Under the pieces are notes generated by a model. That model did not search any database. It had not been told where the DNA came from and worked only from the letters and a program-made list of their open reading frames with translations. The position numbers and the translations under genes were made by a program. This document shows positions 1 to 9,612 of a stretch of 9,612 nucleotides of DNA, piece after piece. Origin of the DNA: a virus (Duplodnaviria; Heunggongvirae; Uroviricota; Caudoviricetes); IMG/VR virus record IMGVR_UViG_2636416140_000002, one strand, 5' to 3'. Numbering within the stretch: position 1 is the stretch's first letter; each line of letters starts with the position of its first letter.

Positions 1-533
1 GAAAAACCAGAGATAAGACAGCGCCAAAATATAAAGCGTTAGACATGACAGAGCTTTCCCTAAAGGTGGCAATCAGAACGATAGACCGACACGTAGGGGA
101 AGGATACGCGAAGGAACATCCCGACCTGATAAGCGCATTCATGACCACAGCAGCGGCAAACTTTGCCACGCTGACAGAACGGGAGATTGCCGAAGCGGAA
201 CAGGTAACAACCATCAACGTTAAAACCGGAGAGGTGGAATCATGAGCGAACCAAAATTTGGTGAAAAACTTTACAAGCACAACGGACGGATCACGATTCA
301 GCAAATAAGCGCAGCTACACCAGGCTGGTGGGTTGAAACAGACGAAGGATCATCAACCGTGGCATCATGGGCGCTTTGTGTGCTTAGTTACCCTGACCGC
401 GATGTGTATCAGGATATTCTGCCTGTGATATCCACTGACAAAGGCATGAAACCCGTAGACATCAAAAACATGGGTTTTCAGTGCGTAATGCTCACTGAAA
501 AAATGATGGAAGAGATGAAAAAGAATAACGCCG
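1..533 (+). repeat. Direct repeat copy 1, apparently identical to 716-1248; truncated by the window start
   Basis: Read directly: 1-533 matches 716-1248 base for base (offset 715). Identity ends at 533/534 in copy 1 and 1248/1249 in copy 2. The repeat may extend upstream of the window. Confidence 0.9.
45..245 (+). CDS. Hypothetical small protein (66 aa from ATG 45), copy 1; frame is open to the window start, so the true start may lie upstream
   Basis: ORF with decent codon usage; its stop overlaps the next ORF's start (ATGA at 242-245), suggesting translational coupling. Identical second copy at 760-960. No recognisable family. Confidence 0.5.
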   Translation: MTELSLKVAIRTIDRHVGEGYAKEHPDLISAFMTTAAANFATLTEREIAEAEQVTTINVKTGEVES

Positions 534-712
534 TGGGGAATTTAACAAAATTGAAACATAATTACCCACTTTCCCACCTGTATATACCCAAAAAAGTGGG
601 GAGTAAAAAATATATTGAAAAACATCACGTTAGAATCACCAAAAAAAGAGGTGGGGAGACGGTGGGTAATTTCAAAAAGTGGGGAGCAAAAGTGGGGAGT
701 AGTGGGGAATGA
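242..712 (+). CDS. Hypothetical protein, duplicated copy 1; first 97 codons identical to 957-1262, then reads through into the iteron region (probable chimeric C-terminus created by the duplication junction)
   Basis: ORF track 156 aa. C-terminal part is encoded by GTGGGGA repeats and A-tracts (VG/KK-rich translation), which looks non-native. Copy 2 ends 3 codons after the divergence point. Confidence 0.4.
   Translation: MSEPKFGEKLYKHNGRITIQQISAATPGWWVETDEGSSTVASWALCVLSYPDRDVYQDILPVISTDKGMKPVDIKNMGFQCVMLTEKMMEEMKKNNAVGNLTKLKHNYPLSHLYIPKKVGSKKYIEKHHVRITKKRGGETVGNFKKWGAKVGSSGE
533..711. repeat. Iteron-like array: at least 7 direct (A)GTGGGGA(G) repeats plus inverted half-sites (CCCACTTT, CCCACC), separated by A-tracts and an AT-rich core; putative replication origin
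   Basis: Direct GTGGGGA copies at about 533-539, 595-603, 651-658, 679-687, 691-699, 701-708 and variant GTGGGT at 662-667; inverted copies at 565-578; AT-rich stretch 541-650. Confidence 0.6.
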
Positions 713-960
713 ACAGAAAAACCAGAGATAAGACAGCGCCAAAATATAAAGCGTTAGACATGACAGAGCTTTCCCTAAAGGTGGCAATCAGAACGATAGA
801 CCGACACGTAGGGGAAGGATACGCGAAGGAACATCCCGACCTGATAAGCGCATTCATGACCACAGCAGCGGCAAACTTTGCCACGCTGACAGAACGGGAG
901 ATTGCCGAAGCGGAACAGGTAACAACCATCAACGTTAAAACCGGAGAGGTGGAATCATGA
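709..960 (+). CDS. Hypothetical small protein, copy 2 (83 aa from ATG 709; 66 aa if the start is ATG 760)
   Basis: Identical to the 45-245 ORF over the shared part. ATG 709 lies inside the last iteron with GGGGAG about 9 nt upstream; ATG 760 has no obvious SD. Stop overlaps the next start (ATGA). Confidence 0.5.
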   Translation: MNRKTRDKTAPKYKALDMTELSLKVAIRTIDRHVGEGYAKEHPDLISAFMTTAAANFATLTEREIAEAEQVTTINVKTGEVES

Positions 961-1248
961 GCGAACCAAAATTTGGTGAAAAACTTTACAAGCACAACGG
1001 ACGGATCACGATTCAGCAAATAAGCGCAGCTACACCAGGCTGGTGGGTTGAAACAGACGAAGGATCATCAACCGTGGCATCATGGGCGCTTTGTGTGCTT
1101 AGTTACCCTGACCGCGATGTGTATCAGGATATTCTGCCTGTGATATCCACTGACAAAGGCATGAAACCCGTAGACATCAAAAACATGGGTTTTCAGTGCG
1201 TAATGCTCACTGAAAAAATGATGGAAGAGATGAAAAAGAATAACGCCG
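716..1248 (+). repeat. Direct repeat copy 2 (identical to 1-533)
   Basis: See copy 1. The 715-bp period equals the 533-bp block plus the 182-bp iteron region, consistent with a tandem duplication of an iteron-plus-gene unit. Confidence 0.9.
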
Positions 1249-1262
1249 GATCGCTTCACTGA
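957..1262 (+). CDS. Hypothetical protein (101 aa), copy 2, probably the intact ancestral version
   Basis: ORF translationally coupled to the upstream small ORF; stop at 1260-1262 overlaps the SD of the downstream SSB gene. No recognisable domain by eye. Confidence 0.55.
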   Translation: MSEPKFGEKLYKHNGRITIQQISAATPGWWVETDEGSSTVASWALCVLSYPDRDVYQDILPVISTDKGMKPVDIKNMGFQCVMLTEKMMEEMKKNNAGSLH

Positions 1263-1271
1263 GGTGGCAAT

Positions 1272-1682
1272 ATGACAGCACAAATTGCAGCTTACGGGCG
1301 GCTGGTGGCTGACCCGCAGTTAAAGACCACCAGCAAGGGTACACAAATGACGATGGCGAGTATGGCGGCCCCCCTTCCGTGCAGCCAGGCAGATGACGGA
1401 ACGGCGACGATGTGGTTATCCGTCCTGGCATTTGGCAGACAGGCCGAATCACTGGCAAGGCACCGCAAGGGTGAACTCCTGACCGTGGCGGGTAACATGC
1501 AGATCAGCCAGTGGACCGGACAGAACGGGGAAACGCGGCAGGGTTATCAGGTTATTGCAGACAGCGTAATCAGTGCCCGTGCGGCACGTCCTGGCGGGAA
1601 CAGACGCAAAACCACAGGCACACAGGGTAATCAGCCACCAGCGGGAGACGATGACCCCTACGGTGATGATATTCCGTTCTGA
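1272..1682 (+). CDS. ssb: Single-stranded DNA-binding protein (SSB, OB-fold) of mobile-element type
   Basis: SD GAGGTGG at 1261-1267. OB-fold-like core (WLSVLAFGRQAESLARHRKGELLTVAGNMQISQWTGQNGETRQGYQVIADSV), Gly/Gln/Pro-rich linker and canonical acidic C-terminal tip DDDPYGDDIPF (compare E. coli SSB ending DDDIPF). Confidence 0.88.
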   Translation: MTAQIAAYGRLVADPQLKTTSKGTQMTMASMAAPLPCSQADDGTATMWLSVLAFGRQAESLARHRKGELLTVAGNMQISQWTGQNGETRQGYQVIADSVISARAARPGGNRRKTTGTQGNQPPAGDDDPYGDDIPF

Positions 1683-1694
1683 GGGGTGGGGACG

Positions 1695-1967
1695 ATGGTA
1701 CATGACCGCATAGCGGAAGAACTGGAGGCGAAAGGCTTTTACCGGAGAGCGTCGGCGCGATGGGGTGAAGTCATGCAACTGGTGGAGACAGACAAGGAAC
1801 GGCATCACATCACGATGCGACGGCTGGAATGTTCCAGGAAGGCACAGAGGCCACCGGAGCCGCCGGATAATTACGGAGACCTGAAAAAGGCGGTCGATCG
1901 CACTTATGCCGAAATGGGTATGGATGGTGCTGGTGATGAAATATGGCGAAATTACCAGGACAGATAA
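1695..1967 (+). CDS. Small putative transcriptional regulator, possibly PerC-like (ORF track start GTG 1686; ATG 1695 preferred)
   Basis: N-terminus MVHDRIAEELEAKGFYRRASARWGEVM resembles, from memory, PerC-family small activators; not verified by search. GAGG upstream of ATG 1695. Followed by a strong terminator. Confidence 0.5.
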   Translation: MVHDRIAEELEAKGFYRRASARWGEVMQLVETDKERHHITMRRLECSRKAQRPPEPPDNYGDLKKAVDRTYAEMGMDGAGDEIWRNYQDR

Positions 1968-2255: not shown

Positions 2256-3413
2256 ATGCCGAGAATAATCGAATTACGCCAGCAGAAAACCGCCATTAAA
2301 AATCAGATGCGCGACATGCTGGAGAACGCGGAAAAAGAAAACCGCAGCCTTAACGATGCAGAGGGCGCAAAATTTGACGAATTACGCGCTAAAGCTGAAT
2401 CCCTCGATAAAGACATTTCCCGCCTTGAAGCCATTGCAGACGAAGAGCGCAGCAAGCCAGGTAAAAGCAGTCAGACCACTGACCCCGCAGAACTCCGCAA
2501 CTACATTCTGACAGGTGAAACCCGCGCATTAAGTACAGGCGTTCCCGCTGATGGTGGTTATACCGTTATCCCTGAACTGAACACCGAAATCATGCGAATG
2601 CTGGCGGATGAATCCACCATGCGCCGCATCTGTACCGTGAAGAAAATCAGCAGCAACGAGTTTAAGCAGCTTGTTTCCGCTGGCGGTGCGACCGTTAACC
2701 ACGGTGAAGAGGGTAAGGCACGCGAACAGACCAGCACCCCGCAGATTAACGAGGTGAGCATCAAGCTGTATCCGGTCTATGCGTACCCGCGCACCACACA
2801 GGAAATCGTGGATTTTTCCGATGTGGACATCCTTTCATGGCTGACGGGTGAGATTGGCGACACCTTCACGGAAACCGAAGAAAGCGATCTGGTTGTGGGC
2901 GACGGTGACAAAAAAGCAAAAGGTTTTTTATCCGTACCCCGTGCAGAGAAGAACGACAAAGAGCGTGATTTTGGTACGTTGCAGGTAATTAAACCTTCCG
3001 AATCTCTGGCGTGGACATCTGCGGACCCGCTGATCGACCTGAAATTTGCATTACGTAAAAAATACCGCAAAAACGCGGTCTGGGTGGTTAACTCCACGAC
3101 GGCGGCAAAACTTCAGAAGGTGAAGAACGCGAACGGTGATTATATCTGGCGCGACCGTTTACAGGCGGGTGATCCTGATACGTTGCTGGGCCTTCCGGTC
3201 GAATATCTGGAGTTTATGCCTGATAACGTTATTGCCCTGGGTGACTTCAAACGCGGTTACTACATTGTTGATCACGAAACAGGTGTTCGCACCAGACCGG
3301 ACAACCTGACAGAACCAGGATTCATCAAAATTTTCACGCAAAAATATTTAGGCGGTGGCGTGGTGGATTCGAACGCGATCAAGATTCTGGAACTGCCGGA
3401 AGACGACGATTAA
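2256..3413 (+). CDS. Phage major capsid protein, HK97 family, with N-terminal scaffolding (delta) domain
   Basis: 385 aa from ATG 2256 (ORF track starts at TTG 2211). Coiled-coil-like N-terminus (ELRQQKTAIKNQMRDMLENAEKENRSLNDAE...) followed by an HK97-fold-like body; AGGA 10 nt upstream of ATG. Confidence 0.92.
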   Translation: MPRIIELRQQKTAIKNQMRDMLENAEKENRSLNDAEGAKFDELRAKAESLDKDISRLEAIADEERSKPGKSSQTTDPAELRNYILTGETRALSTGVPADGGYTVIPELNTEIMRMLADESTMRRICTVKKISSNEFKQLVSAGGATVNHGEEGKAREQTSTPQINEVSIKLYPVYAYPRTTQEIVDFSDVDILSWLTGEIGDTFTETEESDLVVGDGDKKAKGFLSVPRAEKNDKERDFGTLQVIKPSESLAWTSADPLIDLKFALRKKYRKNAVWVVNSTTAAKLQKVKNANGDYIWRDRLQAGDPDTLLGLPVEYLEFMPDNVIALGDFKRGYYIVDHETGVRTRPDNLTEPGFIKIFTQKYLGGGVVDSNAIKILELPEDDD

Positions 3414-3423
3414 CAGCATACAG

Positions 3424-3452
3424 AAGGGGCTTAAAAGCCCCTTTAGTGTTTT
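3424..3452 (+). terminator. Hairpin immediately after the capsid gene (partial terminator or mRNA-stabilising stem-loop)
   Basis: AAGGGGC (3424-3430), loop TTAAAA, GCCCCTT (3437-3443), then TAGTGTTTT. The U-tract is interrupted, so read-through into the protease gene is likely. Confidence 0.5.
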
Positions 3453-4025
3453 ATGGGTGAAAAAATTATGAAGAGTATGGAAATCCGGTCATCGGAAATC
3501 ACCACCAGCGCCAGCAACACGCTTACAGGCTACGTTGTTCGCTGGGATAACCTTTCAGAGCTGCTATGGGGGGAGTTTTACGAAAAATTCCAGCGGGGAG
3601 CGTTTACTGAATGGCTTGCGGCGGGTAATGACGTTCGCGGCCTGTATGAGCATGACCACAGCATGTTACTGGGGCGCACCCGTTCCGGCACGCTGAAACT
3701 GGAAGAGGACGAAACAGGGTTACGCTTTGAACTGACCCCACCGGATACCAGTACAGGGCGCGACGTTATCGAACTGGTTAAGCGTGGGGACATCTCGGGG
3801 ATGAGCTTTGGCTTTCGCTCCCGTAAGGATGTATGGGATACCACAACAGATCCATGCGTGCGCACCGTGCTGGTGGCGGAACTGTACGAAATTACCGTTA
3901 CATCGGTACCGGCTTACCCCGATTCCGGCGTGGAGCTGGCCCGCCGTTCCCTGTATGAGCAGCACCCCGAAAAAATGCCGCGTGCGGATAATCGCCGCTG
4001 GTGGGCGGATTTAGCGGGGGTGTGA
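3453..4025 (+). CDS. Phage prohead (maturation) protease, HK97 family
   Basis: Motifs typical of HK97-type prohead proteases (GYVVRW..., EHDHSMLLGRTRSGTL, GMSFGF). Alternative starts at ATG 3468 and 3477; none has a clear SD. Confidence 0.9.
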   Translation: MGEKIMKSMEIRSSEITTSASNTLTGYVVRWDNLSELLWGEFYEKFQRGAFTEWLAAGNDVRGLYEHDHSMLLGRTRSGTLKLEEDETGLRFELTPPDTSTGRDVIELVKRGDISGMSFGFRSRKDVWDTTTDPCVRTVLVAELYEITVTSVPAYPDSGVELARRSLYEQHPEKMPRADNRRWWADLAGV

Positions 4026-4026
4026 T

Positions 4027-5238
4027 ATGTGGCCTTTCAGAAGAAAAAAAGAGCAGCGCAGCATGACGCTTGATGAGTTTATGGCGCTGGCTGGCACATC
4101 GAACACGGGGGCGGGTGAGTACGTATCATCGGGGACAGCGGAATCACTGCCCGCCGTCATGAACGCCGTCACGGTCATCTCTGAGGCGGTGGCTACCATG
4201 CCGTGTTACCTGTACCTGGTACGCAATGAGAAGGGGAAGGAGGCCCGAGAGTGGCTTGATTCTCATCCGGTCGATCACATCCTCAACGAGCGCCCGAACG
4301 CGTGGCAGACTCCCTACCAGTTTAAGCGAATGATGATCCGCCACTGCCTGTTAAACGGTAATGCTTATGCGGTGATTCAGTGGGGGCGTGATGGTTTTCC
4401 GGTGGCTTTACATCCTTACCCGCCGCAGTCGGTGAACGTGGAGCAGACAGGCGAACACAACTGGCGCTACTGCATCACTGACGCCTACACCGGAAACACC
4501 CGCAACTATTTACCGTGGGAGGTTCTCCACCTTCGTTACTCCACGGATGACGGTTTTATGGGGCGCTCACCTGTAACCATCTGCCGCGAATCGCTGGGGC
4601 TTGGGCTGGCCCAACAACGCCACGGCGCGAGCGTGATGCGTGATGGCATGATGGCGGCAGGGGTTATCACGTCAGGCGAATGGCTGGACGGCGTGAAGGG
4701 CAAACAGGCATTAGCCGCACTGGAACGCTACAAAGGGGCCAGAAACGCCGGAAAAACGCCCATCCTTGAAGGGGGTATGAGCTATCAGCAGCTGGGCATG
4801 AGTAATCAGGATGCTGAATGGCTGGCCTCCCGTCGCTTCACCATTGAAGACATCGCCCGAATGTTCAACGTCTCGCCGATTTTTTTGCAGGAATACAGCA
4901 ACAGCACCTACAGCAATTTCAGCGAGGCAAGCCGCGCATTTCTCACCATGACGATGCGCCCGTGGCTGGCGAACTTTGAGCAGCAGATAAAAAACGCCCT
5001 GCTGGTGGCCTCGCCTGTACCTGGTATCCGGTATCAGGTGGAGTTTGACAGCGCGGACCTGTTACGGGCCACACCAGGCGAACGCTTTGCCACCTATGAA
5101 CGCGGCATCAAATCCGGCGTTATGTGCCCGAACGAAGCCCGCGAACGTGAAGGGCTGTCCCCGCGTGATGGTGGTGATGAGTTCAGCCAGGCATGGAAAC
5201 AGGAAGTAAAAATCAGCGAGGGAGAAAAACCGGAATGA
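4027..5238 (+). CDS. Phage portal protein, HK97 family
   Basis: 403 aa. Start is 1 nt after the protease stop, with a GGGGG SD. Central and C-terminal regions look like HK97-type portals; acidic C-terminal tail. Alternative start ATG 4063. Confidence 0.92.
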   Translation: MWPFRRKKEQRSMTLDEFMALAGTSNTGAGEYVSSGTAESLPAVMNAVTVISEAVATMPCYLYLVRNEKGKEAREWLDSHPVDHILNERPNAWQTPYQFKRMMIRHCLLNGNAYAVIQWGRDGFPVALHPYPPQSVNVEQTGEHNWRYCITDAYTGNTRNYLPWEVLHLRYSTDDGFMGRSPVTICRESLGLGLAQQRHGASVMRDGMMAAGVITSGEWLDGVKGKQALAALERYKGARNAGKTPILEGGMSYQQLGMSNQDAEWLASRRFTIEDIARMFNVSPIFLQEYSNSTYSNFSEASRAFLTMTMRPWLANFEQQIKNALLVASPVPGIRYQVEFDSADLLRATPGERFATYERGIKSGVMCPNEAREREGLSPRDGGDEFSQAWKQEVKISEGEKPE

Positions 5239-5573
5239 ACATAGGGCGACTGCGTGACAGGGTAACGATTCAGACCCTGAAACAGACCAGGGATATAACC
5301 GGCGAAATACTCGAAACGTGGGAGGACGGTCACACACTCTGGGCAAGCGTGAACATGATCAGCAGCAAGGAGGCCATTTCATCGGGTGCAGAGCTGGCGA
5401 TTGGTACCGTAAGGATCTGGATACGGTACCGGAAGGACATCAACGCCACCAGCCGGATAAAGGTCAGTACGGGGCCGCTGGCGGGGCGTGTACTGAATAT
5501 CATCGGGCAGCCGCTGCCGGATGCCGCCAGGACACGCCTTGAAATTCTTTGTCGTGAGGGCGCGGAAAAATGA
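5235..5573 (+). CDS. Head-tail adaptor / head-closure protein (head-tail joining family)
   Basis: ATG 5235 overlaps the portal stop (ATGA). 112 aa with a pattern typical of phage head-tail joining proteins (RDRVTIQ..., ...WASV..., ...RIWIRYR...). ORF track's longer start at 5193 is less likely. Confidence 0.75.
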   Translation: MNIGRLRDRVTIQTLKQTRDITGEILETWEDGHTLWASVNMISSKEAISSGAELAIGTVRIWIRYRKDINATSRIKVSTGPLAGRVLNIIGQPLPDAARTRLEILCREGAEK

Positions 5574-5866
5574 CAGAAGAACTTATCACCCTGGAAGAAG
5601 TGAAACTCCATTGCCGCATCGATGGCGACGAGGAAGACCAGTTAATCAGCGGATACATTGCCGCATCGCTTGAGGCGTGCCAGATACATATAGGCAGGCG
5701 CTTTGATGACGGGCTGGAGTTCACGCCAGCCATAAAGATTGGCTGCATGATGTTTATCGCTCACCTGTACGAGAATCGCCAGCTGGTAGCGGATAACGCA
5801 AAAACGCGCGTACCCATGACGATTGGCGCGCTCTGGACGGCTTACCGTGATGTGGGGGTGTACTGA
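5570..5866 (+). CDS. gp6-like head-tail connector protein
   Basis: ATGA overlap with the upstream gene. N-terminus ITLEEVKLHCRIDGDEEDQLISGYIAASLEACQ is characteristic of gp6-like connector / DNA-packaging proteins. Confidence 0.82.
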   Translation: MTEELITLEEVKLHCRIDGDEEDQLISGYIAASLEACQIHIGRRFDDGLEFTPAIKIGCMMFIAHLYENRQLVADNAKTRVPMTIGALWTAYRDVGVY

Positions 5867-6306
5867 TGCCGTGGCAACCATTAAGACGATGCACAGAACC
5901 AGGCTGTAACAGGCGCGTGAAGTCCGGCAAGTGTGAGGAGCACAGGCGGGCGGCATGGCGTGCAGAGGATGCCAGACGAGGACACCGCCGCGCGCGTGGG
6001 TACTCCAGACAGTGGGACAAATACCGCGCCATGTATCTGAGTAAAAACCCGTTATGCGTGCGATGCCTTGAGAAGGGGATATATACGCCCGCCGTGGTGG
6101 TGGATCACATTATCCCGATTAATGGCGGTGATGATGTTCTCTTCTGGCCCGAATGGAACCATCAACCATTGTGCCAGGCGTGTCATAACCAGAAAACGAA
6201 ATGGCTTGATCCGGCAACAAAAAGCAAGCGTGCCGCAGGTGGATTTCATGAAGAGGAAGAACGGGCCGCTAACCGCAATAACTGGATGTATGACGCTGAT
6301 GAATGA
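5866..6306 (+). CDS. HNH endonuclease (packaging-associated, adjacent to terminase)
   Basis: Cys-rich N-terminus (C..PGC...GKCEEH) and HNH core (VVDHIIPINGGDD...NHQPLCQACHNQKT). TGATG overlap with the connector gene. Position just upstream of terS is typical of cos-type HK97-like systems. Confidence 0.9.
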   Translation: MPWQPLRRCTEPGCNRRVKSGKCEEHRRAAWRAEDARRGHRRARGYSRQWDKYRAMYLSKNPLCVRCLEKGIYTPAVVVDHIIPINGGDDVLFWPEWNHQPLCQACHNQKTKWLDPATKSKRAAGGFHEEEERAANRNNWMYDADE

Positions 6307-6854: not shown

Positions 6855-8499
6855 GTACGCAGAAGACGTAAAAACGGGCAAAATTCCGGCCTGTAAACGG
6901 CTGAAACAGGCCGTTAAACGGTACTTTTCGGACCTTAAAAGCCCCCTTTACACGTTCGATCGTGAGGTTGTGGAGCGGTTTATTGCCTTTTCCAGGGTGT
7001 GCCCGCACGTAAAAGGACCGATGCGTGGCAGACCCATTGAGCTGGAGCCGTGGCAGCAGTTCGCCTTTGCGTGCATCCTCGGCTTTAAGGTTAAGGCCAC
7101 CGGACGGCGCAAATACACGAGCGCCTTTATCGAAGTGCCGCGCAAAAATGCGAAATCCACGACCGCCGCGATTCTGGCTAACTGGTTTCTGATTATGGAG
7201 AACGGTCAGCAGGATATCTACACCGCAGCGGTGAGCCGTGACCAGGCGCGGATCGTCTTTGATGATGCGCGTCAGATGTGCCTTTTATCCCGACCGTTAC
7301 GCAGGCGGGTGAATATTCAGGCGCATAAGGTGATACACCCGAAAAGCAACAGCCTGTTAAAGCCGCTGGCAGCAAAAGCGGCAACCATCGAGGGAACAAA
7401 CCCAAGCCTTTCCATCGTGGACGAATACCACTTGCACCCCGATAACGGCGTTTATTCCGCGCTTGAGCTGGGGATGGGCGCACGTCCCGAAGGGCTGTTA
7501 TTTGCCATTACCACATCAGGCAGCAACGTCGTTTCAGCCTGTAAACAGCACTATGATTATTGCTGCCAGATCCTGGACGGCGAAGAGGTTAACGATTCAA
7601 TTTTTGTACTGATTTACGAACTGGACGACGAAAACGAGGTTGATGATCCGGCGATGTGGATAAAGGCGAACCCTAATATTGATGTTTCCGTCGATCGTGA
7701 AAAACTGGCCTCAACCATCCAGAAAGCGCGGGGTATTCCGTCGCAGTGGGTGGAGATGATGACAAAGCGATTTAATATCTGGTGCCAGGGGGCTACCCCG
7801 TGGATGGGTAACGGCGCATGGGCTGAGTGTGCCGGAACGTTCACGGAGGAAGATTTACACGGCCAGGAGTGTTACGCGGGGCTGGACTTATCATCAACCA
7901 GCGATATTTCCAGCGTGTGCTATGCCTTTCCGGTCGGTAAAACCATTATGCTGGTTTCCCGTCACTATCTGCCGGAATTTCAGCTACAGAACCCCGCCAA
8001 TAAAAACCGCGCCATCTATCGTCAGTGGGCTAAAGCAGGCTGGATACGCACAACGCCTGGCGACTGCATTGATTACGACCGGATCAGAGATGACATCATG
8101 CAGGACGCGGAGAAATTTAATATCAGGCTGGTGGGCTTTGATACGTGGAACGCCACGCATCTCAGAACGCAATTACAGGGGGCAGGTTTTGAGGTGGAGC
8201 CGTTCCCGCAAACCTACCTCAGATTCAGTCCGGCGGCGAAATCGTTCGAAGTTTTTGTTAACCGCAGGGTGATTGTGCATCGTGGCGATCCGGTGTTGTC
8301 CTGGTCGATGAGTAACGTCGTGATGCAGAGTGACGCGAACGCCAATATCAAGCCGAACAAGAAAAAATCACCGAACAAGATAGACCCGAGCGTGGCGGCG
8401 CTGATGGCGTTTGGTACATTCCAGGCAGAGCATGAGGATTTTGCTTTTGATATAAGCGACAGCCACCGCCAGAAACTGGAAGAATTTAGCGGGGTGTAA
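6838..8499 (+). CDS. terL: Terminase large subunit (ATPase and nuclease)
   Basis: 553 aa. TTG start with GAGGA SD 5 nt upstream, overlapping the terS 3' end. N-terminus AWNKYAEDVKTGKIPACKRLKQAV and ATPase region are typical of large terminases; acidic residues in the C-terminal nuclease part. Confidence 0.93.
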   Translation: MTAWNKYAEDVKTGKIPACKRLKQAVKRYFSDLKSPLYTFDREVVERFIAFSRVCPHVKGPMRGRPIELEPWQQFAFACILGFKVKATGRRKYTSAFIEVPRKNAKSTTAAILANWFLIMENGQQDIYTAAVSRDQARIVFDDARQMCLLSRPLRRRVNIQAHKVIHPKSNSLLKPLAAKAATIEGTNPSLSIVDEYHLHPDNGVYSALELGMGARPEGLLFAITTSGSNVVSACKQHYDYCCQILDGEEVNDSIFVLIYELDDENEVDDPAMWIKANPNIDVSVDREKLASTIQKARGIPSQWVEMMTKRFNIWCQGATPWMGNGAWAECAGTFTEEDLHGQECYAGLDLSSTSDISSVCYAFPVGKTIMLVSRHYLPEFQLQNPANKNRAIYRQWAKAGWIRTTPGDCIDYDRIRDDIMQDAEKFNIRLVGFDTWNATHLRTQLQGAGFEVEPFPQTYLRFSPAAKSFEVFVNRRVIVHRGDPVLSWSMSNVVMQSDANANIKPNKKKSPNKIDPSVAALMAFGTFQAEHEDFAFDISDSHRQKLEEFSGV

Positions 8500-8512: not shown

Positions 8513-8794
8513 ATGACAGAAGCCGAAATAACGGGATTAATCCGCCGCGTTGCCGGAATCAGCCAGCAGGCTGACGAACAGGCCACGCAGCCGGACAGCG
8601 TGACAGCCGAAAACTATGCGCGTGTTGTTGCTGAGGTGATGCGCCGTGATGGTATAGAACTTAATGGCGTGGATATGCGCAACATACGAACCAGAGTTCT
8701 TGAGTTGCTGGCCTACCGTCGCCGCGTGGAGATGTATCGGGAGAAGGAGAAAATAACGTACCACTGGAAGAAGCCGGAGCGGTTGCGGCGGTAA
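8513..8794 (+). CDS. Hypothetical protein (93 aa), last gene of the packaging operon
   Basis: Good SD (GAGGT) 7 nt upstream, tight spacing after terL, reasonable codon usage. Charged, likely helical; no family recognised. Confidence 0.6.
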   Translation: MTEAEITGLIRRVAGISQQADEQATQPDSVTAENYARVVAEVMRRDGIELNGVDMRNIRTRVLELLAYRRRVEMYREKEKITYHWKKPERLRR

Positions 8795-9048
8795 CTGGTT
8801 GATATTCCCGACGGCCCAAAAATGGGTTGGCTACACCCCTCACAACTACGACATTTTCGCAGTTTAATTAATGGTCAGCTTAATCGCTAACCCGCTGATA
8901 TTTTCGGAAACCTCAATTTGAGGAAGTCGGCGCGGTAACTCGCTGAACTTTAAGCAAAGCGCAAAATTGCGCTTGCTGAATAATCATTATGATTACGCAG
9001 ATGATTAAGGAATGACCGAAGGCGGAAATTCGCCTGTGGTTAATGGGG

Positions 9049-9068
9049 GAGTTGCAGATCTGCAACTC
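9049..9068. promoter_or_regulatory. Perfect 20-bp palindrome GAGTTGCAGATCTGCAACTC (contains GATC)
   Basis: Reverse complement is identical to the sequence; lies in non-coding DNA downstream of the packaging genes. Confidence 0.6.
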
Positions 9069-9117
9069 GACCATGAAACTACGGAAACTACCCGTAGTTT
9101 GGGTAGTAAGAGTAACA

Positions 9118-9157
9118 CCCAGATTTTGGGGCTTACTCGTGATACCCAAATTTGGGG
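9118..9157. repeat. Two near-identical palindromic units CCCAGATTTTGGGG (9118-9131) and CCCAAATTTGGGG (9145-9157) in direct orientation
   Basis: Read directly; each unit is itself dyad-symmetric (CCCAAATTTGGG is a perfect palindrome). Confidence 0.55.
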
Positions 9158-9301
9158 TATCAGTGGCAACCATAACGACTTTCGTTACGGTTGATGCTTT
9201 TACCCCATTGGGGGAAAGGTATTACGATAATCATAACACCTACCGAACAGGTAAAGCCCACCAGCCTGATTAACGTTTAACCGGAAAAAAATTCCGGTAG
9301 G

Positions 9302-9492: not shown

Positions 9493-9612
9493 TCAATGTG
9501 TTATGCGAAATAAGTTATATATAACAGCAATAAATAATGCGAGAATAAACGGCACGATGATCTCGGCGGCAAAACGGATACCGCAGAGAATAATGACCAG
9601 CATTCCCAACAT
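9493..9612 (-). CDS. 3' end of a minus-strand ORF encoding a hydrophobic (membrane) segment; ATG sits exactly at the window edge, so it is either a complete 39-aa small membrane protein or the C-terminus of a longer flanking gene
   Basis: Reverse-strand translation [39 protein letters not shown], stop at 9493-9495. GC-rich third positions in the first 20 codons suggest real coding. Not in the ORF track because it is under 60 aa within the window. Confidence 0.4.

Follow-up and report, generated by a model that had tools for sequence, protein, structure and literature searches.

The stretch of DNA analysed here is the virus record IMGVR_UViG_2636416140_000002 from IMG/VR, assigned to the Caudoviricetes, with a length of 9,612 nucleotides (nt); it is referred to as the window. 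It represents the right half of a capsid-forming phage-inducible chromosomal island (cf-PICI) with its insertion site in the Escherichia coli gene tqsA. The origin iterons (533-708) are followed by two small open reading frames (ORFs) on the forward strand, ORF1 (709-960) and ORF2 (957-1262), then by ssb, perC, a terminator-like hairpin and an HK97-type packaging module. The two small ORFs between the iteron array and ssb are the subject of this report. The initial annotation, made from the letters of the window, had located both genes correctly, including the stop/start overlap ATGA (957-960, 4 nt) that joins them. It had described them as a translationally coupled, duplicated pair without a recognised family and, from their position, as candidates for a helper-interference or regulatory function.

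For ORF2 the initially assigned length of 101 residues was confirmed. ORF1, in contrast, codes for 83 residues when read from 709, and the 66 residues assigned initially correspond to an internal ATG at position 760. The longer form is used by PGAP and by the protein family phrog_1231, which is matched over its entire length (E = 5e-51, residues 1-83 on positions 1-83 of an 83-position profile), while the 66-residue form covers only positions 18-83. The internal methionine is replaced by leucine or isoleucine in many homologues, and the basic tail of about 16 residues upstream of it is always present. This N-terminal tail (residues 1-16) has a charge of +4.5 and is followed by an acidic helical core with a charge of -6. 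The structure predicted for the ORF1 monomer is poor (predicted local distance difference test, pLDDT, 61).

ORF1 is a PICI-specific core gene. A word-indexed search resulted in 167 protein clusters, which are restricted to Escherichia, Shigella and Citrobacter, have at least 63% identity in the conserved core, and show no Pfam domain in any of the 167 cases. On the DNA level, 1617 of 5426 complete E. coli genomes carry ORF1, and a single genome may have as many as 6 copies. A plasmid collection contained it in only 5 records, all from E. coli, and a tblastn search against 50,697 phage records gave zero matches. In a scan of contigs from the genome collection a single ORF1 locus was detected. 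Poor conservation in related elements, which the initial annotation had named as an argument against its proposal, was thus not found, ORF1 being strongly conserved. When the 62-codon core was compared between six islands, 9-27 synonymous and 5-15 non-synonymous differences were counted, and the stretch HPELISAFMTTAAANFATLTEREIAEAEQVTTINV is essentially invariant despite synonymous change. Because synonymous changes are many and the amino-acid core is invariant, ORF1 is, as judged from its codons, a real protein with a core under strong purifying selection. This codon pattern, together with the tryptophan, glycine, proline and cysteine positions which are kept in ORF2 relatives at 30-40% identity, rules out that the two ORFs are chance reading frames.

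For an analysis of gene order, 93 distinct ORF1 loci were pooled from contigs, annotated genomes and IMG/VR and were classified by local tblastn. In nearly all of these, ORF1 is the first gene after the origin, whichever type of replicase or iteron is present. The gene upstream codes for a RepA-family helicase (several subtypes with 61-100% identity), a D5-type primase or a DUF927 primase, and is separated from ORF1 by 200-390 nt of origin sequence. Downstream, ssb follows directly in 68 of the 93 loci, and in all but one of these (67 of 68) the two genes overlap by 4 nt (ATGA), with the ssb Shine-Dalgarno sequence falling within the final codons of ORF1. In the other loci, ORF1 is followed by ORF2 and then ssb (about 20), by perC (2) or by other genes (2). 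The usual translational-coupling partner of ORF1 is ssb, which in the window is located at 1272-1682 on the forward strand and codes for a protein of 136 residues (Pfam SSB, E = 2.4e-15) with the C-terminal tip DDIPF.

The origin next to ORF1 is far more variable. In the window it is an array of GTGGGGAG-type repeats, direct and inverted, around AT-rich spacers, with direct copies of GTGGGGA(G) starting at 533, 596, 651, 679, 692 and 702 and inverted CCCAC cores at 565 and 573. Such iteron arrays with AT-rich spacers are the origin architecture described for Gram-negative PICIs (PMC6092414). Upstream of the conserved ORF1 core, at least six unrelated iteron types were found (GTGGGGAG, CTGTTCACC, CTGTTCAT, CCCTCTACC, TGTCTACC and TAACCCGCA). 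An ORF1 tail of the RRDRTEPKYK type is common to five iteron types (GTGGGGA, AAAGTGAG, GCGGGTTA, GGTAGACA and CCTCTACC) and, conversely, two different tails occur with one and the same iteron type. With unrelated iterons beside a conserved ORF1, the protein is not an origin-specificity factor, and a function as iteron-specific initiator could be ruled out. The ORF1 homologue of EcCICFT073, the prototype Gram-negative PICI, is coupled to ssb and has 83% identity in the core. As a cloned pri-ori segment of this island replicates a plasmid on its own, without the ORF1 homologue (PMC6092414), ORF1 is dispensable for basic origin firing.

Two further observations concern ORF1 loci in other islands. 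In L020 (NZ_CP027550.1), ORF1 is frameshifted (3261-3484) and a paralogue with 49% identity is found 3.5 kb downstream (6987-7241), away from the origin and from ssb. ORF1-ssb modules also occur in helper-embedded PICIs which are inserted in a prophage capsid-E gene (L006-L008, L019), some of which carry a gene with a TIR domain at their right end.

ORF2 belongs to phrog_27268 (E = 1.2e-68, residues 1-101 on positions 1-104 of a 104-position profile) and is an optional cassette inserted exactly at the ATGA junction of ORF1 and ssb. Close relatives are rare, with 8 clusters and an occurrence in 82 of the 5426 complete E. coli genomes. They are always preceded by ORF1 and followed by ssb or, where ssb has been lost, by perC, and are accompanied by replicases of the RepA, D5 or DUF927 type. 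Islands without ORF2 read ...GGAGAGGTGGAATCATGACAGCACAG..., so that the ORF1 stop overlaps the ssb start, while the sequence in the window is ...GGAGAGGTGGAATCATGAGCGAACC [ORF2] CACTGAGGTGGCAATATGACAGCACAA.... A 15-nt imperfect repeat of the translation-start region thus flanks the cassette. Its left copy, GAGGTGGAATCATGA, comprises the Shine-Dalgarno sequence and the ATGA overlap (946-960, forward strand) and its right copy, GAGGTGGCAATATGA, the region of ssb translation start (1261-1275, forward strand). As this imperfect direct repeat bounds the cassette on both sides, it suggests that ORF2 has been gained or lost by recombination between the two translation-start regions.

A wider ORF2 family with 30-40% identity became evident upon exhaustive HMMER searches followed by a profile search. 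It extends to islands of E. coli, Salmonella, Klebsiella, Serratia, Citrobacter, Proteus/Providencia/Morganella and Xenorhabdus and shares the motifs PGWW, SP(V/I)A(A/S)WAL, ILPV and GM-P. In every locus inspected, the distant relative is the first gene after the PICI replicase and origin. Most of these loci lack ORF1, and the next genes are either those for ProQ/FinO-like and PerC proteins or a small ORF together with capsid genes. The ORF2-like proteins P0130, P0131, P0133 and P0151 (from Salmonella, Klebsiella, Morganellaceae and other E. coli islands) combine all four motifs but differ from ORF2 by a longer acidic C-terminal extension in place of the short helix. They are usually found without ORF1 and also without ssb, except for L046 and L053. 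The predicted structure of ORF2 is a small SH3-like β-barrel with a C-terminal helix, a model that may be likened to the integrase C-terminal domain and to Tudor, KOW and bacterial SH3b domains. When ORF2 and the distant ORF2-like protein P0130 were compared by tblastn to the 50,697 phage records, zero matches were obtained.

Two loci with exceptional gene order are informative. In L046 (IMGVR_UViG_2851955134_000006, 4923-5974), the order is reversed to origin, ORF2-like gene, ORF1 and ssb, but the ORF1-ssb coupling and the origin-adjacent position of the ORF2-like gene are both kept. In L053 (IMGVR_UViG_2740892231_000011, 3496-4687), the origin is followed by an ORF2-like gene, a gene for an unrelated protein of 139 residues and ssb, again with overlapping stops and starts. 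These arrangements indicate that ORF1 and ORF2 are independent modules in a variable origin-proximal slot. The proposal that they form a fixed coupled pair could consequently not be upheld, given that ssb follows straight after ORF1 in 68 of the 93 loci, that ORF2-like genes exist without ORF1, and that the order is reversed in L046. The first 7 residues (MTAKHTK) are all that the 139-residue protein of L053 shares with one ORF1 subtype, and this indicates that a recombination breakpoint lies at the 5' end.

Scans of ORF1, ORF2 and every member of their alignments against Pfam, NCBIfam and PADLOC revealed nothing usable. Matches to WAPL, COG5 and the like are noise, with E values of 0.02 or worse in 1-3 of 34 members. 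The defence-protein models of PADLOC-DB showed no family at E values up to 1, and in the PDB there was no accepted match to either protein. A similarity of ORF2 to the UvrB-binding domain of UvrA (E = 0.12) disappeared when the family profile was used. A match of the ORF2 profile to TAL effectors (E = 2e-17) proved to be an artefact, being the sum over 23 repeats of a 20-residue motif with 0-4 bits each, and the large proteins P0132 and P0134 from the representative search were discarded for being repeat-driven false positives. The statement that no family can be recognised is thus correct for Pfam, NCBIfam, PADLOC and the PDB but not for PHROG, where both families exist. Both are labelled as having unknown function, and the RefSeq entries are hypothetical proteins. 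Profile, PDB and phage-record searches gave no clear homology to a characterised housekeeping phage protein. We found no paper that names or studies either protein, their RefSeq protein accessions are mentioned in none, and the PICI and cf-PICI papers examined do not treat them. In this respect the view that the genes are candidates for something not yet described was borne out, both being uncharacterised and satellite-specific. The kind of island, the two PHROG families and the RefSeq hypothetical proteins were already known. What is new is descriptive, namely that ORF1 is a nearly universal gene which is confined to PICIs and sits at the origin/ssb junction, that ORF2 is a cassette at this junction with a wider family in the slot next to the origin, and that the window carries a unique duplication.

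Both ORF1 and ORF2 are genuine protein-coding genes and occupy the far end of the replication operon of the island. The last gene of the operon codes for a PerC-family protein (1686-1967, forward strand, E = 3e-43). Just past it, at 1974-1991 on the forward strand, is the only convincing terminator-like hairpin with a T run, which is the likely end of a transcription unit that comprises replicase, origin, ORF1, ORF2, ssb and perC. No sigma-70-like promoter was predicted over positions 1-2400. Without a predicted promoter in this region, and with the hairpin after perC, both genes are attributed to the operon of replicase and origin rather than to that for packaging.

From comparison of sequences and gene orders, ORF1 is a core satellite-specific family and ORF2 an unrelated, optional cassette. 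The reading we prefer, with a probability slightly below one half (about 45%), is that ORF1 has a replication-accessory role alongside SSB, with ORF2 as an optional module for binding that acts in the same step. Induction by a helper phage would lead to transcription of the operon through the origin, and ORF1 would be made in step with the satellite SSB. At the opened origin or at the fork it might then serve as an accessory factor that is independent of the replicon, for example by handling single-stranded DNA coated with SSB, as a partner or mediator, or by recruiting components of the host replisome. It would neither recognise the origin nor be needed for its basic firing. ORF2 could be an add-on SH3-like module which binds nucleic acid or protein and modulates the same step. 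The association of ORF1 with SSB is proposed because of their conserved adjacency and translational coupling, features that commonly, though not always, mark proteins that work together. SSB partner or mediator proteins are known from phage replisomes, such as gp59 of T4, which acts with gp32. The common feature would be a small accessory protein encoded in a replication module beside, and expressed together with, the element's own SSB. This is an analogy only; ORF1 is much smaller and has no sequence or fold similarity to such proteins.

Several observations weigh against a replication-accessory role. The link between ORF1 and SSB is drawn from adjacency and coupling only, and shared descent of a single module could explain both. 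ORF1 occurs without ssb in L015 and L016, where perC follows, and in L060 and L062, where other genes follow; one island has an ORF1 paralogue elsewhere; and in L053 a different protein, that of 139 residues, is encoded upstream of ssb. ORF2-like genes are found in islands that have neither ORF1 nor ssb, and a shared function of ORF1, ORF2 and SSB is therefore not required. A bolder version of the replication-accessory reading, which we regard as rather improbable, is that ORF1 is a universal satellite replisome adaptor. Made in a fixed ratio with SSB, it would plug RepA, D5 or DUF927 replicases into the host machinery or would divert host SSB-interacting proteins from host or helper replication, with the ORF2-like β-barrels being an alternative solution.

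The initial annotation had pointed to helper interference, and one or both proteins might indeed be interference, host-takeover or anti-phage factors that hit a protein of the helper phage or the host. Both families are satellite-specific and absent from the phage records, ORF2 resembles a mobile cassette in its patchy occurrence (82 of 5426 genomes) and in its changing place relative to ORF1, and the ORF1 core is far more conserved than its replicon, which would fit a conserved host or helper target. However, PADLOC did not return a match, the genes are located in the replication operon upstream of the terminator-like site and not in a packaging/interference module, and ORF1 is coupled to ssb in 67 of the 68 directly adjacent cases. 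In addition, the E. coli PICI interference factor that has been characterised, Rpp, is encoded by another gene, which lies on the island's packaging side (PMC6739421). Interference or takeover is plausible, especially for ORF2, but considering the placement of the genes it is not the best-supported explanation and overall we hold it to be unlikely. It has also been considered that ORF1 is a small dimeric DNA-binding regulator, similar to ribbon-helix-helix or helix-turn-helix proteins, which acts near the origin or on downstream genes. This would agree with a basic N-terminal tail that is followed by two or three helices and with a poor monomer model, which we infer to be typical of intertwined dimers. 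Residues 16-78 of ORF1 weakly resemble a cyclin/helix-turn-helix segment of TFIIB, but the E value of the profile match (0.84) is not significant. Pfam gives no hit, a fold match is not supported by the poor ORF1 model (pLDDT 61), and ORF1 does not co-vary with the origin. Such a regulator is improbable.

Two other explanations take the ATGA overlaps as their starting point and have very little probability in our view. The small, acidic, helical ORF1 and the SH3-like barrel of about 100 residues encoded by the overlapping ORF2 could be taken for the antitoxin and toxin of a type II toxin-antitoxin system. A recognisable toxin or antitoxin domain or fold was not found in ORF1 or ORF2, and the pair is ruled out by its co-occurrence pattern, since ssb is next to ORF1 in 68 of 93 loci, ORF2-like genes occur alone, and the order is reversed in L046. 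Alternatively, ORF1 might mainly be an upstream reading frame that delivers ribosomes to ssb, with the peptide itself having little function. The overlap in 67 of 68 adjacent cases and the location of the ssb Shine-Dalgarno sequence within the last ORF1 codons are what would be expected of such a leader. Nevertheless, the core amino acids are under strong purifying selection with many synonymous changes, ORF1 is kept where ssb is absent, and a diverged paralogue exists. A mere coupling leader was rejected on the grounds of selection.

In E. coli, PICIs rank among the commonest mobile elements, and the usual description of their replication modules names only a primase/helicase and an origin. 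To this, ORF1 adds a small, strongly conserved, satellite-only gene at the origin/ssb junction. About 30% of complete E. coli genomes carry it, and it is found in the EcCICFT073 prototype as well as in islands of the EcCIEDL933 type. With ORF2, the position next to the origin emerges as a second variable slot of these islands. A function of ORF1 together with SSB or the host replisome would make it a general component of satellite replication that does not depend on the replicon, and a gene that is easily targeted by genetics; otherwise, the finding amounts to two more hypothetical proteins. Should the adaptor version be true, ORF1 would represent a new and widespread class of satellite replication or takeover factor, occurring in about 30% of E. 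coli genomes.

The duplication mentioned in the initial annotation exists in the window, where positions 1-533 and 716-1248 are 100% identical with zero differences. Alignment with the undisrupted relative L001 revealed a head-to-tail tandem duplication with a period of 715 nt. Its upstream copy (1-533, forward strand) contains ORF1 from codon 3 (3-245) and codons 1-97 of ORF2 (242-532), and its left end falls outside the window. At about position 533, codon 97 of ORF2 runs into the third left-hand iteron, and one G is common to both, a microhomology of 1 nt. The junction reads ...AATAACGCC-G-TGGGGAATTT... (AACGCC-G-TGGGGAATTT), and the sequence which spans it is AATAACGCCGTGGGGAATTT. The first two left-hand iterons, which in L001 come after the repA stop, are missing from the internal origin copy (533-708). 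As a consequence of the junction, the upstream copy of ORF2 is chimeric, with residues 1-97 fused at about 533 to iteron read-through, resulting in an ORF of 156 residues (242-712, forward strand) that is unlikely to be a functional gene. Gene callers have also reported fusions of iteron read-through frames to ORF1 elsewhere (for example P0014 with 142 and P0005 with 127 residues), and these inflate the apparent lengths of the family.

A probe of 211 nt across the junction matched 242 complete E. coli genomes, but each of the full-coverage matches listed is split into two separate pieces, which have the normal order and a distance of about 717 nt. Neither the 5426 complete E. coli genomes nor IMG/VR contain the exact junction. 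The duplication is thus not a conserved property of ORF1 and ORF2. Either an illegitimate tandem duplication took place very recently or the assembly is in error; such assembly artefacts in active islands have been reported (PMC10111431). The duplication calls for caution with assemblies or represents a rare case of origin duplication.

The assignment of the element as a cf-PICI of the EcCIEDL933 type is based on its Pfam matches (SSB, PerC, HK97 capsid, protease, portal and HNH), on the list of ORFs and on the annotation of near-identical E. coli islands, which have 96-97% identity and the same ORF1-ORF2-ssb-perC block. In the window, the terminase genes are also found downstream, after those for the HK97-type capsid protein, prohead protease, portal and HNH endonuclease. 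The left half with integrase, AlpA-type regulator and replicase is outside the window but is seen in the 96-97% relatives L001 and L026. There the order is integrase, helix-turn-helix regulator (AlpA-type), Icd-like and small genes, DUF4222 and RepA-family helicase. The right half continues with iterons, ORF1, ORF2, ssb, perC, capsid, protease, portal, head closure, connector, HNH, TerS, TerL and a small hypothetical gene. At the right end of the window, a 5' fragment of tqsA (9498-9612, reverse strand), coding for an autoinducer 2 (AI-2) transporter, shows that the island sits inside this gene, as it does in strain CD45 (L026).

E. coli cf-PICIs of the EcCIEDL933 type have been described by Alqurainy et al. 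(bioRxiv 10.1101/2022.09.08.507074). They share with the window element the right-half order of HK97-type capsid, protease, portal, head closure, connector, HNH, TerS and TerL after the replication module as well as the absence of tail and lysis genes. The window island differs in being inserted in tqsA and not between roxA and phoQ, and in carrying the 715-nt duplication of origin, ORF1 and most of ORF2. In the same study packaging genes were mutated, and ORF1 and ORF2 were not addressed (bioRxiv 10.1101/2022.09.08.507074). In EcCICFT073, the ORF1 homologue (C_RS06990, WP_001260558.1) likewise comes first after the origin; its stop codon overlaps the start of ssb, behind which perC is found. 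This island differs by a D5-type primase, by other iterons, by having no ORF2, and by a late region of the capsid-E type instead of the HK97 module.

An Rfam scan of the entire window matched nothing. A few additional features were noted on its packaging side. A conserved gene for 93 residues after terL (8513-8794) belongs to phrog_1561, a family of unknown function, and is found in the same place in EcCICFT073 and in cf-PICIs; it did not match Pfam, NCBIfam or PADLOC. Between the last gene of the island and the tqsA fragment, the non-coding sequence contains nested, near-perfect inverted repeats at 9040-9160 (9040-9058/9059-9077, 9089-9121/9127-9159 and 9140-9150/9152-9162). These have no Rfam match and may be an att-proximal structure or a repetitive element. 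Finally, an 18-nt inverted repeat (2116-2133/2148-2165, 94% complementary, with a loop of 14 nt) is located upstream of the capsid gene at the boundary between replication and packaging operon and could be a terminator or an operator.

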